Shown piece after piece: positions 30,378 through 38,900 of a stretch of 42,872 bases of DNA; position 1 is the stretch's first letter; every line of letters starts with the position of its first letter. Source of the stretch: a virus. Taxonomy: Duplodnaviria; Heunggongvirae; Uroviricota; Caudoviricetes. The stretch covers positions 1 through 42,872 of the IMG/VR virus record IMGVR_UViG_2718217859_000008; one strand, 5' to 3'. The notes beneath the pieces were generated by a model that did not search any database, was not told the origin of the DNA, and saw only the letters and a list, made by a program, of their open reading frames with translations. A program made the position numbers and the translations under genes.

Positions 30378-30533
30378 TTACTCCTCAGGTTCGTAAGCTG
30401 TGAAGACAGCGACCTCCGTCTGGCCGGTTCGGATTCGTACCTCGCAGAGGTCTTTCCTCGTTACCAGTGCCGTCACTATAACGGTTAAACAGATGACGAT
30501 CAGGGCGATTAACATCGCCTTTTGCTGCTTCAT
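30378..30533 (-). CDS. hok: Hok-family type I toxin (51 aa)
   Basis: MKQQKAMLIALIVICLTVIVTALVTRKDLCEVRIRTGQTEVAVFTAYEPEE matches HokD/RelF as recalled; AAGGAG 9 nt upstream of the ATG at 30531-30533. Confidence 0.9.
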   Translation of the reverse strand: MKQQKAMLIALIVICLTVIVTALVTRKDLCEVRIRTGQTEVAVFTAYEPEE

Positions 30534-30726
30534 AGCCTGCTTCTCCTTGCCTTTCGGCACGTAAGAGGCTAACCTACGTGTGCAAGTCATAGATATGGCC
30601 TCAGATTAATGTTAAGCGTCTTGCAGGACGCGTAATGTTAACTGGGGCTTTTCTCTGTCTGCCTTACGGCGGCATGCCCGAGGCAGATAGCCTCAAGCAC
30701 CCGCAGCAATTCTACTTAACTCTCGC

Positions 30727-35222: not shown

Positions 35223-35648
35223 TTAGTGCATCACCACGGCATTTCCTGCCGGGCCGCCGCGATTCATCTGGTCATACAAAACAACCGCTGACGCAACAAA
35301 ATCGTCGACATCTTTCACCAACCGATCCCTCCGTTCGACAATCTCACGGTAATACTCAGAACTGTGGCTGCGCATACGGGCCACCAGCAAAGGCGGCATC
35401 GCCTTTTCGATCGCCGGTAACAGAGCCTGCATTTTTTCAACAGCATCAGGGGTGTCTTTATCCAGCCAACGGAAAATTTTCTGGGTATTACGGGCCAGGG
35501 CTTCCGGATGGCTGTCGTCGTACAGTTCCGGGAACGTCATTCCCAGTTCGAAATAAGTCCGGGCTATTTCAGCTGCAGGAACTTTCTCACCATCAGGGTA
35601 TGCCCAGGCATTCATCGCCATGCGGATATGCTCATGTTTGATTTTCAT
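35223..35648 (-). CDS. ydaT: YdaT-like protein (CII-like / reported toxin)
   Basis: 141 aa; N-terminus MKIKHEHI as in Rac YdaT (from memory); directly 3' of the Cro-like gene. Confidence 0.65.
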   Translation of the reverse strand: MKIKHEHIRMAMNAWAYPDGEKVPAAEIARTYFELGMTFPELYDDSHPEALARNTQKIFRWLDKDTPDAVEKMQALLPAIEKAMPPLLVARMRSHSSEYYREIVERRDRLVKDVDDFVASAVVLYDQMNRGGPAGNAVVMH

Positions 35649-35955
35649 GAATCATTTGCCTCTTGATGCTTCGGGTATGATCGTTTTCGTCATTTGGTTG
35701 CTTCATCGACATATTCTGCGAATAACATGACGAGCGTCGTAAGTATGTCCAATCAACATCAGGACGAAGTTCTTCACACAGGACACCACCTTTTGTTGCT
35801 CGTTCAATCGCAGGACATCTCTCAGCAGGCAACTGACGTACACCTTTGATCCATTGATTTACGCTTGGAGGAGATACACCTAAAAGCCTAGCCATTGCTG
35901 ATTGCCCACCGACAACAGCACAAGCTCGTTTGAATGAATAGTTATCTTTTTTCAT
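35632..35955 (-). CDS. ydaS: Cro-like HTH regulator YdaS-like
   Basis: MKKDNYSFKRACAVVGGQSAMARLLGVSPPSVNQWIKGVRQLP matches YdaS as recalled; divergent from the repressor gene. Confidence 0.7.
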   Translation of the reverse strand: MKKDNYSFKRACAVVGGQSAMARLLGVSPPSVNQWIKGVRQLPAERCPAIERATKGGVLCEELRPDVDWTYLRRSSCYSQNMSMKQPNDENDHTRSIKRQMIHENQT

Positions 35956-35982
35956 CGAATGAACTCCAAAAAACACACAATA

Positions 35983-36051
35983 ATATTAGGCTTAGCCTAA
36001 TGTGATTGTCAATAGGCTATGCCTAACGCTTCGAGAGTAGGTATTGCCTAA
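35983..36051. promoter_or_regulatory. OR-like operator cluster with divergent promoters
   Basis: Three sites of form TTAGGC-N3-GCCTAA (35986-36000, 36012-36026, 36038-36051); minus-strand promoter TTGACA (36007-36012) - 18 nt - TAATAT (35983-35988) aimed at ydaS. Confidence 0.6.
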
Positions 36052-36079
36052 CGCGATGCGCATAGGAGACTATTAAGCA

Positions 36080-36556
36080 ATGCTTAGTGGTAAAGACTTA
36101 GGCCGAGCGATAGAGCAGGCCATTAACAAAAAAATTGCATCAGGAGCCGTCAAATCAAAGGCGGAAATCGCACGTCATTTCAAAGTCCAACCACCATCAA
36201 TCCATGACTGGATTAAGAAAGGTTCGATAAGTAAAGACAAACTTCCAGAACTATGGCGTTTCTTTTCTGATGTGGTTGGTCCAGAGCATTGGGGGCTTAA
36301 CGAATACCCCATACCAACCCCATCCACTTCAGATACAAAAAGTGAACTTTTAGACATAAACAGCCTTTATCAAGCCGCCTCTGATGAAAAAAGAGCAATT
36401 GTGGCTTTCCTCTTATCTGGAAATGCTACGGAGCCTAGTTGGGTTGATCATGACGTTCGCGCCTACATTGCCGCAATGGAAATGAAGGTAGCTAACTATC
36501 TGAAAAATCAAGAATCAAAACGGAAAAGCCAGAACATCACCAAGACAGGAACTTAA
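36080..36556 (+). CDS. prophage repressor (CI/RacR-like HTH, 158 aa, no S24 peptidase domain)
   Basis: HTH (KAEIARHFKVQPPSIHDWIKKG); flanked on both sides by the same operator sequence; AGGAG upstream of the ATG; no Ser/Lys autocleavage module evident. Confidence 0.6.
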   Translation: MLSGKDLGRAIEQAINKKIASGAVKSKAEIARHFKVQPPSIHDWIKKGSISKDKLPELWRFFSDVVGPEHWGLNEYPIPTPSTSDTKSELLDINSLYQAASDEKRAIVAFLLSGNATEPSWVDHDVRAYIAAMEMKVANYLKNQESKRKSQNITKTGT

Positions 36557-36650
36557 ACTTATATGGTCCGACGGGAAATTCCTAGTTCCCGTTAGTTAAC
36601 TCCTACTACCTCTCCCACAAACCATCACCTATTAGGTCGCACCCAAATCA

Positions 36651-36693
36651 TTAGGCATAGCCTATTGACAAGCAATTAGGCATTTCCTATAGT
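36651..36693 (+). promoter_or_regulatory. OL-like operators with early-left promoter
   Basis: 36651-36669 is the exact reverse complement of 36008-36026 (19 bp); TTGACA (36665-36670) - 17 nt - TATAGT (36688-36693), with a second operator-like site in the spacer. Confidence 0.65.
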
Positions 36694-36874
36694 TTTCCCA
36701 TACCAACCCATCCCGTCCCACACAATACAGGGCAATACCTAGAGTTACCCGGTAGTGGTCAGGGATTAAGTAGCCAGCCCGAGGCGTATGAACATGACGG
36801 CGGGAACACTTTGTATAACAGCGCAGCAGGTTTTTAGTTCCGCTACCCCAGCGTTAAGGGGAAATGAGGTCAAC

Positions 36875-37030
36875 ATGGATACTATCGATCTTGGCAACAA
36901 CGAATCTCTGGTGTACGGCGTGTTTCCCAACCAGGACGGCACATTCACCGCGATGACGTATACCAAAAGTAAAACGTTTAAAACCGAAACTGGCGCTCGT
37001 CGCTGGCTGGAAAGAAATTCAGGTGAGTGA
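36875..37030 (+). CDS. ydfA: YdfA-like small protein (51 aa)
   Basis: MDTIDLGNNESLVYGVFPNQDGTFTAMTYTKSK; GAGG upstream; first gene after the early-left promoter, as in the Qin dicB operon. Confidence 0.55.
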   Translation: MDTIDLGNNESLVYGVFPNQDGTFTAMTYTKSKTFKTETGARRWLERNSGE

Positions 37031-37031
37031 T

Positions 37032-37160
37032 ATGGATTTCGACGCAATCATGGAAAAGGCTTACGAAGAATACTTCGAAGACCTTGCCGAAGGCGAAGAA
37101 GCTCTCAGCTTCAGTGAGTTTAAACAGGCGCTTTCCAGTTCGGCAAAATCTAACGACTGA
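37032..37160 (+). CDS. ydfB: YdfB-like small acidic protein (42 aa)
   Basis: Hand translation MDFDAIMEKAYEEYFEDLAEGEEALSFSEFKQALSSSAKSND; ATG 2 nt after the ydfA stop; below the ORF-track cut-off. Confidence 0.45.
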   Translation: MDFDAIMEKAYEEYFEDLAEGEEALSFSEFKQALSSSAKSND

Positions 37161-37189
37161 TAAGCGAAGCGGCACCGCGAGGAATCAGT

Positions 37190-37405
37190 ATGCAGAAACG
37201 AGAACCCGTCATCATCGCACCAGACTATACCGAGGATGAAATTTACGAATGGATGTGCGGAAAGATACGCGCCATTAATGACCTGAAGCAGGCCGCTGAC
37301 TACAAAGAGCGCCTCTCTAAAGAACTGGTGTCAGCGGAGCAGGATATTACCACTCTGGCAAAAAGCGCGGCATTAAACGTTTCGCGAGTGATTGAAAACT
37401 ACTGA
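37190..37405 (+). CDS. ydfC: YdfC-like protein (71 aa)
   Basis: MQKREPVIIAPDYTEDEIYEWMCGKIRAINDLKQAADYKERL; GAGGAA upstream. Confidence 0.55.
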   Translation: MQKREPVIIAPDYTEDEIYEWMCGKIRAINDLKQAADYKERLSKELVSAEQDITTLAKSAALNVSRVIENY

Positions 37406-37494
37406 CCAATGAGCTCAAGTAGTTCTCCGCAGATGAAGTGCGTGCGCCGGACACGGATAAACCTCCGGCATGCTCTTTAACAATCTGGATATTC

Positions 37495-37941
37495 CTAACC
37501 ACAAAGAAATCGCATCAATTTGGATTTTGTGGGCAACTTCTCTTGTTGTTCGATGGAGACGCCTATTTTGATCTGTGTTTTTAAGATCGCAATATCTTTA
37601 AGTGATGACCAAATATGATCATCTGTTTTTTCCAGAGTTTTTAACTGAATTTTCAATTCCGAATCAGAATATTTTTCTGCATCATCAAAAAGCTGCAAAT
37701 ATTCTGCGGATTTTCTCATGGCATTACCTGACTTTTGTCCGAATCCATAAATCGTTTGGACGGTTGCGATCACAACAATAAAAACGCCAGAAATTTCCGG
37801 AATGAATCCGCCAATGACAGATGAACCGAGGATAATACTCACTACTGAGAGAAGTTTATCGAGACGACCAGTCGCTACAGAAAACAGTTGCTCAAGAAAA
37901 TAGCCATATAAAATTCTGTCAAGAATATCATCCCGGTCCAT
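37495..37941 (-). CDS. two-TM membrane protein (148 aa), antisense to the early-left operon
   Basis: ATG at 37939-37941 with AGGTGA 7 nt upstream; two adjacent hydrophobic helices then a charged helical tail; resembles SLATT/Abi-type 2TM effectors by architecture only. Confidence 0.6.
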   Translation of the reverse strand: MDRDDILDRILYGYFLEQLFSVATGRLDKLLSVVSIILGSSVIGGFIPEISGVFIVVIATVQTIYGFGQKSGNAMRKSAEYLQLFDDAEKYSDSELKIQLKTLEKTDDHIWSSLKDIAILKTQIKIGVSIEQQEKLPTKSKLMRFLCG

Positions 37942-38007
37942 ACACCATCACCTGTTTGTGCTCTTTGCTCTGTCATATGATTTCCTTGGATCGTTGGGGA
38001 TATCCAG

Positions 38008-38013
38008 ATTATA
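38008..38013 (-). promoter_or_regulatory. candidate -10 element (TATAAT) for the 2-TM gene
   Basis: Minus-strand CTGTATAATCTGG about 65 nt upstream of the start codon; no good -35, but a perfect -10 with upstream TG. Confidence 0.4.
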
Positions 38014-38271
38014 CAGATTTCCTGTCGTTGGGGAATGACGGAAACCACCTCGCCTGACGTGGTTAAAAGCAGGCACACAACACGAAAGCGCACGGCGAAG
38101 TTCGTCTCACTGTACGGTGTCGTTAAATTTAATTCGACCGTGCGCTTCCGGTTGTGGCAATCCGCGAAATGGCGCGGCGGTAAGTATGGCGAGGCTATCC
38201 TTTCCTCGAGATAACACCGGGTTGCCAGGTTGACCATACGCCTGAGTGACAACCCTGCTGCAACAACCCAT

Positions 38272-38328
38272 GTTGATTACCTTTTGGCGGGTATCCGTTT
38301 TGCTTTCCCCGTGATACCCGCCCTTTTT
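38272..38328 (+). ncRNA. dicF: DicF-like sRNA with intrinsic terminator
   Basis: TTTTGGCGGGTATCCGTTTTGCTTTCCCCGTGATACCCGCCCTTTTT resembles E. coli DicF (UUUGGCGGUAUCAGUUUUACUCCGUGACUGCUCUGCCGCCCUUUUU) as recalled; 10-bp terminator stem 38286-38322 plus T5; directly upstream of dicB; 5' end approximate. Confidence 0.6.
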
Positions 38329-38511
38329 AAAGTGAATTTTGTGATGCGGTGAATGCGGCTCAGCGCACGCGGAACAGTTAAAAAGGCCAGTTGACTTCCG
38401 TATTGGTTCTTATGGGTGGGTTCTCTGTATCCGGCGTTAATTATTAACTGGTTAACGTCACCTGGAGGCACCAGGCACCGCATCACAAAATTCATTGTTG
38501 AGGACGCGATA

Positions 38512-38694
38512 ATGGAAACGTTATTACCAAACGTCAATACGTCTGAAGGTTGTTTTGAAATTGGTGTCAGAATCAGTAATCCTGTATTTACTGAAGATGC
38601 CATTAATAAGAGAAAACACGAACGGGAGCTATTAAATCAAATATGCATTGTTTCAATGCTGGCCCGTTTACGCCTGATGCAAAAAGGACGCTGA
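38512..38694 (+). CDS. dicB: cell division inhibitor DicB
   Basis: 60 aa METLLPNVNTSEGCFEIGVRISNPVFTEDAINKRKHERELLNQICIVSMLARLRLMQKGR near-identical to K-12 DicB as recalled; GAGGA 8 nt upstream. Confidence 0.85.
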   Translation: METLLPNVNTSEGCFEIGVRISNPVFTEDAINKRKHERELLNQICIVSMLARLRLMQKGR

Positions 38695-38696
38695 CA

Positions 38697-38900
38697 ATGA
38701 ATACAACATTTGCACTCGTTCTGACAGTTCATCTTGTTTCCGGCGAATCTCTTGAGCTGGTGACAGGCTTATACGGTTCAATGAAAGAATGCATAGCTGC
38801 CGCAGATGAACAGAAAATTCCCGGTAACTGTTATCCGGTCGATAAAGTTATTCGCATGGATAATAACGAAATCCCGGCAGGACTTAAAACAGCACCGTAA
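38697..38900 (+). CDS. ydfD: YdfD-like small protein (67 aa)
   Basis: MNTTFALVLTVHLVSGESLELVTGLYGSMKEC; AAGGA upstream; immediately follows dicB as in Qin. Confidence 0.6.
   Translation: MNTTFALVLTVHLVSGESLELVTGLYGSMKECIAAADEQKIPGNCYPVDKVIRMDNNEIPAGLKTAP

Follow-up and report, generated by a model that had tools for sequence, protein, structure and literature searches.

Operator modules on both sides of racR in the immunity region of a Rac-type lambdoid prophage

What does it mean for a prophage that its repressor gene is flanked by two inverted copies of the same short sequence, and how is such a prophage induced if its repressor carries no cleavage domain? Both questions are raised by the racR locus of IMG/VR record IMGVR_UViG_2718217859_000008, whose complete sequence of 42,872 bp (hereafter the window) represents a lambdoid prophage of full length whose immunity is of the Rac type and which looks complete from the tail genes to int. 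A preliminary description, made from the sequence alone, had identified an immunity region at 35983-36693, and the gene content bears this out: the central gene encodes RacR, and its neighbours are ydaS (Cro-like) and ydaT to the left and a DUF1391/ydfA-like gene to the right. The central gene is as follows:

36080-36556, plus strand: racR, encoding a 158-aa repressor with a helix-turn-helix (HTH) domain at about residues 1-73, a disordered linker and a helical C-terminal domain

The gene product is 92% identical to RacR of Escherichia coli K-12, and RefSeq annotates the gene as racR. As set out below, the locus is very probably the immunity switch of a Rac-type lambdoid prophage, in which RacR represses two outward promoters via shared operators.

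Results

The inverted repeat and the operator sites

An identical 19-bp module had been reported on both sides of the repressor gene. Indeed, GTCAATAGGCTATGCCTAA is present in exactly two copies, at 36008-36026 on the plus strand and at 36651-36669 on the minus strand, and no third copy occurs in the window even with up to three mismatches (0 expected from 100 shuffles). The full exact inverted repeat comprises 21 bp (TTGTCAATAGGCTATGCCTAA, 36006-36026 and 36651-36671), with a similarity beyond it of 90% across 29 nt; only one other exact inverted repeat of at least 19 nt exists in the window (38333/38476). The proposal that each 19-bp copy supplies the TTGACA of a -35 box holds for five of the six bases, while the sixth is only reached within the 21-bp extension.

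36006-36026: left 21-bp copy, consisting of the operator ATAGGCTATGCCTAA at 36012-36026 and the -35 box of the ydaS promoter
36651-36671: right 21-bp copy, consisting of the operator TTAGGCATAGCCTAT at 36651-36665 and the -35 box of the rightward promoter
Left module, in the direction of transcription: TTAGGCATAGCCTATTGACAATCACATTAGGCTAAGCCTAATAT
Right module, in the direction of transcription: TTAGGCATAGCCTATTGACAAGCAATTAGGCATTTCCTATAGT

Further TTAGGC-N3-GCCTAA sites had been noted nearby, and allowing for up to two mismatches we located five such sites in the window, all of them inside the immunity region (0.99 expected; none of the shuffles reached five). They start at 35986, 36012 and 36037 on the left and at 36651 and 36676 on the right, and agree with the footprint-derived RacR consensus (T/A)TAGGC-n3-GCCTA(T/A) (PMC9638921). 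When read along transcription, the left and the right module are homologous over about 45 bp; in both, operator 1 finishes on the first base of the -35 box, and operator 2, located 25-26 bp further on, overlaps the -10 box. The 21-bp repeat is made up of 12 half-site bases and the six bases of the -35 box, one of which is common to both, so that the free bases are four in number (the 3-nt operator spacer and one flanking base), which match by chance. Thus, the identity over 21 bp is mostly forced because both promoters share the same design of operator plus -35 box. The two copies of the 19-mer differ by one spacer base in K-12 and at two or three positions in more distant lineages. Nothing points to selection for the two sides being exactly identical.

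As the two inverted copies exactly flank a single gene, they might also be taken for recombination sites that end a mobile or invertible racR cassette. We give this reading next to no credit, since the core of the repeat is the footprinted RacR palindrome, more copies of the palindrome adjoin each arm and are in register with the -10 boxes, no recombinase gene adjoins the locus, and all 1085 matches among the E. coli genomes described below are collinear over at least 80% of the query.

The ydaS promoter and the racR promoter region

The left-hand elements of the switch are:

36012-35983, minus strand: PR-equivalent promoter for ydaS-ydaT, TTGACA / 18 nt / TAATAT, 10/12 in a consensus promoter scan
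35986-36000: predicted RacR operator, the perfect palindrome TTAGGCTTAGCCTAA, over the -10 box of the ydaS promoter (O1 in K-12 naming)
36037-36051: third operator-like site GTAGGTATTGCCTAA, 2 mismatches, in the racR promoter region
36073-36087: degenerate operator TTAAGCAATGCTTAG, 3 mismatches, spanning the racR start codon (O3 in K-12 naming)

The outward promoter towards ydaS that had been proposed corresponds to the TTGACA site found by the scan, and its anatomy of TTGACA/18 bp/TAATAT is that mapped and mutated in K-12. There, ydaS is transcribed from a single promoter with these hexamers at 18-bp spacing, as determined by primer extension, and a mutation of the -10 box abolishes its activity (PMC9638921, PMC11879457). 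RacR has been footprinted by the Mruk laboratory across the K-12 racR-ydaS intergenic region, from which the operator consensus given above and a site across the racR ATG were derived (PMC9638921). The K-12 counterpart of the operator at 35986 lies in the DNase I region that is protected at the lowest RacR concentration, and the overlap of O3 with the ATG has been described in the same study (PMC9638921). Earlier work by electrophoretic mobility shift assay on the K-12 left side yielded three RacR complexes (PMC5700373). It is these left-side RacR footprints and the ydaS promoter that have been demonstrated by experiment, in K-12 only. The position of the third site is kept in K-12 and in more distant loci, and the site across the racR start codon is conserved in all related loci. 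The -10 box of the leaderless racR promoter that was mapped in K-12 (window 36064-36079) reads GAGACT here versus GAGAAT in K-12, a difference which could alter the expression of racR.

The rightward promoter and its leader

On the opposite side of racR, the following elements were delineated:

36665-36693, plus strand: predicted PL-equivalent promoter to ydfA-ydfB-ydfC, dicB, exonuclease, xis and int, TTGACA/17 nt/TATAGT, 11/12
36676-36690: predicted second right-hand operator TTAGGCATTTCCTAT, 2 mismatches, over the spacer and the -10 box of the rightward promoter
36632-36646: weak and doubtful candidate for a third right-hand site, TTAGGTCGCACCCAA, 3 mismatches
36694-36874, plus strand: untranslated leader of about 170-180 nt, belonging to the conserved immunity module
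36572-36593, plus strand: hairpin ACGGGAA / TTCCCGT, directly 3' of the racR stop codon

A promoter scan of 35600-37100 returned exactly two sites, the same two that the preliminary description had named, and the one pointing towards ydfA has the form TTGACA/17 nt/TATAGT. We infer its function, and the binding of RacR and repression on this side, from conservation and from K-12 transcriptomics. In K-12, a right-hand module is present between racR and ydaG (TTAGGCATAGCCTATTGACA...TATAGT; in its longer form TTAGGCATAGCCTATTGACAATCAATTAGGCATTACCTATAGT), and ydaG, ydaF, kilR, ydaE and racC are up 40- to 70-fold as racR expression drops (PMC6765115, PMC11014345). A rise of this size requires a separate RacR-repressed promoter between racR and ydaG (PMC6765115). 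A similar de-repression of the five genes results from CRISPR interference with racR in K-12 (bioRxiv 10.64898/2026.09.06.749655). The operator at 36676 is spaced 25 bp, start to start, from its partner in every lineage that has the right-hand pair. The candidate at 36632 has two mismatches in E. ruysiae, and its conservation is absent outside Escherichia.

Homology to K-12 Rac extends from 35625 to 36862 at 86% DNA identity and ends just 5' of the ydfA ribosome-binding site, so that both the right-hand promoter and some 170 nt of the leader fall within the immunity module. This leader is kept with K-12 despite a different first gene (ydaG in K-12, ydfA here). As to its nature, a structured leader RNA was rejected, the fold of 36700-36880 being no more stable than those of shuffles (z = +1.25), and a leader peptide was likewise rejected, since the small open reading frame (ORF) from 36788 is out of frame in K-12. 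An Rfam scan of 35500-38800 returned no family for the leader and one weak STnc100-like match elsewhere. The hairpin behind racR, the stem of which is one base pair shorter in K-12, may act as a weak terminator shielding the rightward promoter from racR read-through; a terminator scan made no call. Just 5' of the hairpin, a TGGTC motif is invariant in seven lineages. In addition, an exact 13-nt direct repeat, CCCATACCAACCC, occurs at 36308-36320 inside racR and at 36697-36709 at the start of the predicted rightward transcript, possibly by chance.

Distribution and conservation of the two-sided arrangement

The unit of left operators, racR and right operators is present in 1085 of 5426 complete E. 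coli genomes, in each case with at least 80% coverage, and the identity is at least 99% in 305 of the 1085, including O157:H7 strains. In a survey of RacR relatives that used one genome per species, 12 loci were found. An operator pair 25 bp apart, together with TTGAC(A), is located 3' of the repressor gene in E. coli, E. ruysiae, Mixta, a metagenome-assembled genome of Pseudomonadota, and Proteus; at two Achromobacter loci, the right-hand pair lies 1.6-2.3 kb downstream, past extra genes. When the DNA downstream of the repressor gene was aligned across seven lineages, the sole long invariant block was ATTAGGCAnAGCCTATTGAC...ATTAGGC...CCTA, which is the right-hand module. One locus of the survey (L005, JARKOR010000130.1) is situated on a 5.2-kb contig binned as 'Candidatus Nanosynbacter'. 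Its RacR is 92% identical to the query, as is that of E. coli, and its operators have exactly the K-12-type sequences, at the same offsets; it is most likely a mis-binned or contaminating contig. Among 50,697 phage records searched by tblastn, six have a RacR-like repressor, with a single close match, ON470595.1. The latter says nothing on inducibility because it is a predicted prophage that includes host flanks.

A working model of the switch and the points that weigh against it

According to the model that we favor, RacR would bind 15-bp palindromes of the type TTAGGC-N3-GCCTAA in two modules of about 45 bp which point away from racR. As one operator of each module abuts the -35 box and the other overlaps the -10 box, bound RacR would block RNA polymerase at both promoters. 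The left module would be the equivalent of PR and drive ydaS (Cro-like), ydaT (CII-like) and the replication genes, and the further left-hand sites over the racR promoters and start codon would provide autoregulation. The right module would be the equivalent of PL, driving ydfA-ydfB-ydfC, dicB, exonuclease, xis and int. Like in lambda, a DNA loop may connect the two operator sets, whose centres are 645 bp apart, a possibility raised because published size-exclusion data support a RacR octamer.

Several observations weigh against this model or parts of it. The promoter-like sites are not above chance by count (2 found versus 2.6 expected in 35600-37100), so the case for their function rests on the K-12 experiments and on conservation. 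A locus from Klebsiella sp. (L010) and two loci with short repressors (L012 and L014) are without a right-hand pair within the DNA fetched. The start-to-start distance of the operator sets, which is 639 bp here and 641 bp in K-12, varies between 614 and 2578 bp among the other lineages, and the helical phase is thus not conserved; therefore, there is no sequence support for a loop. Moreover, in the literature searched no mapping of RacR binding or of a transcription start downstream of racR was found, although the case made by the sequence is strong, and the de-repression data from K-12 could be partly indirect.

This gap in the literature on direct right-side data, along with the two mismatches in the second right-hand operator, would also suit an alternative in which the right module is a copy of the ydaS promoter region that has decayed or fallen silent and plays no part in regulation, expression of the rightward genes starting elsewhere. 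We consider this highly improbable, as the module is the sole long invariant block amid otherwise unalignable DNA in seven lineages, both promoter hexamers are near consensus, and the downstream genes of K-12 respond strongly, by the 40- to 70-fold stated above, to a drop in racR expression (PMC6765115).

RacR is built without an S24 domain

That the repressor lacks an S24 autopeptidase domain, a claim which the preliminary description had staked on detection by hidden Markov model (HMM), is upheld: the HMM search was run, and Pfam gives no match of RacR to Peptidase_S24 (PF00717) at E <= 0.1. As a positive control, PF00717 scores with E values of 1e-19 to 2e-21 on the relatives P0101, P0102 and P0114. 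An AlphaFold2 model of RacR (43 homologues; mean predicted local distance difference test score 81.6) is all-helical, with the HTH domain reaching to about residue 73, a linker disordered at 80-90, and helices at 93-99, 102-112 and 124-155. RecA-stimulated self-cleavage of RacR is impossible because this helical C-terminal domain replaces S24. A sequence search of the PDB with the C-terminal domain gave no match at E <= 1, and Foldseek returned only weak matches to XRE or lambda cI N-terminal domains (E > 0.3) and no functional clue. In published work, RacR has been described as octameric, based on size-exclusion data; its N-terminal domain is reported to be like that of lambda CI, and its C-terminal domain, which serves oligomerisation, to be unrelated (PMC11014345). 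Although RacR occurs in a fifth of complete E. coli genomes, it has no match in PHROGs v4 at E <= 1e-5 and exceeds the cut-off of no Pfam family.

The homologue search also revealed relatives of 226-235 aa in which a clear S24 domain comes after a RacR-like N-terminal domain, and an Achromobacter relative of 366 aa has a C-terminal S24-like segment with GDSMEP:

RacR-domain repressors fused to S24, 226-366 aa: P0101, P0102 and P0114; L015, 3934-5511; L011, 2501-3601

P0102 is 86% identical to RacR across residues 1-77, and its gene is accompanied by a divergent ydaS-like gene and flanked on either side by the same TTAGGC-N3-GCCTAA operators. As these relatives carry the same domain and the same operators, one DNA-binding specificity is found with SOS-cleavable repressors as well as with non-cleavable ones. 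It might be speculated, tentatively and with considerable doubt, that the RacR DNA-binding domain and its two-sided operators form a portable module that is placed on different C-terminal domains, that cross-binding confers an SOS-proof immunity, and that the octamer loops the 645 bp between the operator sets. If this is true, and if the operators are cross-bound, a non-cleavable and often cryptic RacR prophage would hold SOS-inducible phages of the same specificity repressed during DNA damage. In any case, the S24-bearing relatives with identical operators represent a clean natural comparison for the question of induction, which we regard as the most useful by-product of this analysis.

How could the prophage be induced?

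Since RacR is unable to cleave itself like LexA or CI, de-repression must arise when RacR is lost, diluted or sequestered. Zygotic induction, YdaS or another partner might be the source. A search of the prophage for an antirepressor, which had been suggested along with the description of the locus, was carried out in part: PHROGs searches on 20 ORFs of the prophage (early, nin, lysis and left-operon regions) found no antirepressor family. Similarly, no credible LexA box exists in the window, as scoring of the full 20-mer gives two weak matches versus 1.8 expected, both in tail genes. CTGT-N8-ACAG motifs with one mismatch are in excess (30 versus 13 expected, and no shuffle reached 30) and were considered as LexA boxes but rejected by the 20-mer scoring; the excess probably reflects a bias in codons or trinucleotides, which is not kept by dinucleotide shuffling. 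In the closest genome, NZ_CP015229, the lysozyme and spanin genes are separated by a segment of about 1 kb that is missing here at 23001-23065, and this segment carries a frameshifted pseudogene of a phage antirepressor. When RacR was compared to GtgR of Gifsy-2, the pairwise E value was 0.003 over 76 residues, restricted to the HTH region, and hhalign gave a probability of 3%.

These results bear on the idea of a Gifsy-like induction, in which a small LexA-controlled antirepressor, possibly provided by another prophage, takes RacR off the DNA. Lemire et al. (2011, PMC3121763) counted RacR and DicA among those short repressors for which self-cleavage is unlikely and which are candidate targets of an antirepressor; such a mechanism would fit a RacR without S24, and antirepressors that act in trans exist in Salmonella (PMC3121763). 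However, the window has neither a LexA box nor, among the 20 ORFs, an antirepressor family, the only antirepressor of the closest genome is the frameshifted pseudogene on the segment missing here, and the likeness of RacR to GtgR is confined to the HTH level. We therefore consider a Gifsy-like induction unlikely. It is quite possible, if short of probable, that there is no dedicated inducer at all and that the switch flips only once the level of RacR declines through dilution, noise or proteolysis, with YdaS then locking the lytic state, zygotic induction being one example. For Rac, zygotic induction is a classical observation (cited in PMC5917428), and in K-12 less RacR or an excess of YdaS leads to slow excision of Rac over generations (PMC11014345). 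On the other hand, these data stem from a defective prophage, whereas the prophage studied here looks complete; a temperate phage without any response to host damage would be unusual, and relatives with the same DNA-binding domain carry S24, so that SOS coupling is used in the family.

Neighbouring genes and further elements of the prophage

The genes next to the switch and the YdaT-box are:

35632-35955, minus strand: ydaS, Cro-like HTH protein (Pfam YdaS_toxin 3.8e-30, P22_Cro 1e-8), 85% identical to K-12 YdaS
35223-35648, minus strand: ydaT, CII-like activator with a Pfam YdaT_toxin match
35638-35655, minus strand: YdaT-box ATGATTCATGAAAATCAA, spanning the ydaT start codon, exact and unique in the window
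36875-37030, plus strand: first gene of the rightward operon, DUF1391 (ydfA/ydaF-like)
37032-37160, plus strand: ydfB
37190-37405, plus strand: ydfC-like gene

The YdaT-box, ATGATT-N6-AATCAA, has been footprinted in K-12, where its sequence is the same as here (PMC11879457). On the left side, ydaS-ydaT are followed by replication genes. On the right side, dicB, exonuclease, xis and int follow the ydfC-like gene, as judged by comparison with the near-identical genome NZ_CP015229. Two RNAs scored above the Rfam gathering score: the sok antitoxin RNA at 30528-30702 on the minus strand (110.6 bits), as part of a hok/sok module adjoining the nin region, and the small RNA STnc100 at 25992-26166 on the minus strand (93.7 bits). 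A sub-threshold STnc100-like match at 38335-38489 on the plus strand (33.5 bits, E 7.7e-5) is located 5' of dicB and holds the 38333/38476 inverted repeat; this is the position at which Qin carries dicF.

Comparison with known systems

The feature is the known Rac-type immunity switch, which is common in E. coli (about 20% of complete genomes). The switch, its operator consensus, the ydaS promoter and a RacR free of a cleavage domain have all been published for K-12 Rac already, so that the present finding adds little to them. The locus shares individual traits with several other systems. Like RacR, the repressors of the prophages Gifsy-1 to Gifsy-3 are short (about 140-160 aa) and without a cleavage domain, and RacR has been named in this loose group (PMC3121763). 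In contrast to Gifsy, no dinI-linked LexA box or antirepressor gene was found in this prophage. As in the dicA/dicC region of Qin, the rightward operon of this prophage (DUF1391/ydfA, ydfB, a ydfC-like gene and dicB) is located directly 3' of a short repressor gene without S24, whereas repressor and operators are of the DicA type there and of the RacR type here. We take the Qin gene order to be ydfA-ydfB-ydfC-dicF-dicB, which would match the rightward operon of this prophage.

A two-sided arrangement is also known from CP-933P of E. coli O157:H7, which encodes PaaR2, YdaS and YdaT: the -35 and -10 boxes of its PL are identical to those of PR, the operators on both are of the same type, and the repressor is octameric (PMC8630535). 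PL of CP-933P has the operators OL1-3 and is repressed about 100-fold by PaaR2 and YdaS (PMC8630535). CP-933P differs from the prophage studied here in that the repressor belongs to another family, the operators are different (GTTTAGTAA-type repeats), and the repressor operon contains a toxin-antitoxin pair. Similarly, in lambda cI/OR/OL the repressor gene lies between two outward early promoters with tandem operators over the -35 and -10 boxes, further sites control the repressor's own promoter, and the divergent transcript starts with a cro-like and then a cII-like gene. An octameric repressor has been reported for both lambda CI and RacR (PMC11014345). Beyond the HTH fold, however, there is no detectable sequence similarity to lambda, the operator sets are 2.3 kb apart in lambda versus 0.65 kb here, and YdaS has been reported not to repress racR in K-12, unlike the situation in lambda (PMC9638921). 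The K-12 Rac prophage has orthologous RacR and YdaS proteins, the operator consensus, the anatomy of the ydaS promoter, the YdaT-box and the right-hand module 3' of racR in common with the prophage described here. The two diverge at a mosaic joint at about 36862, behind which the leader is followed by ydaG-ydaF in K-12 and by the Qin-like ydfA-ydfB-ydfC here, and while K-12 Rac is defective, the prophage of this study has a full set of late genes.

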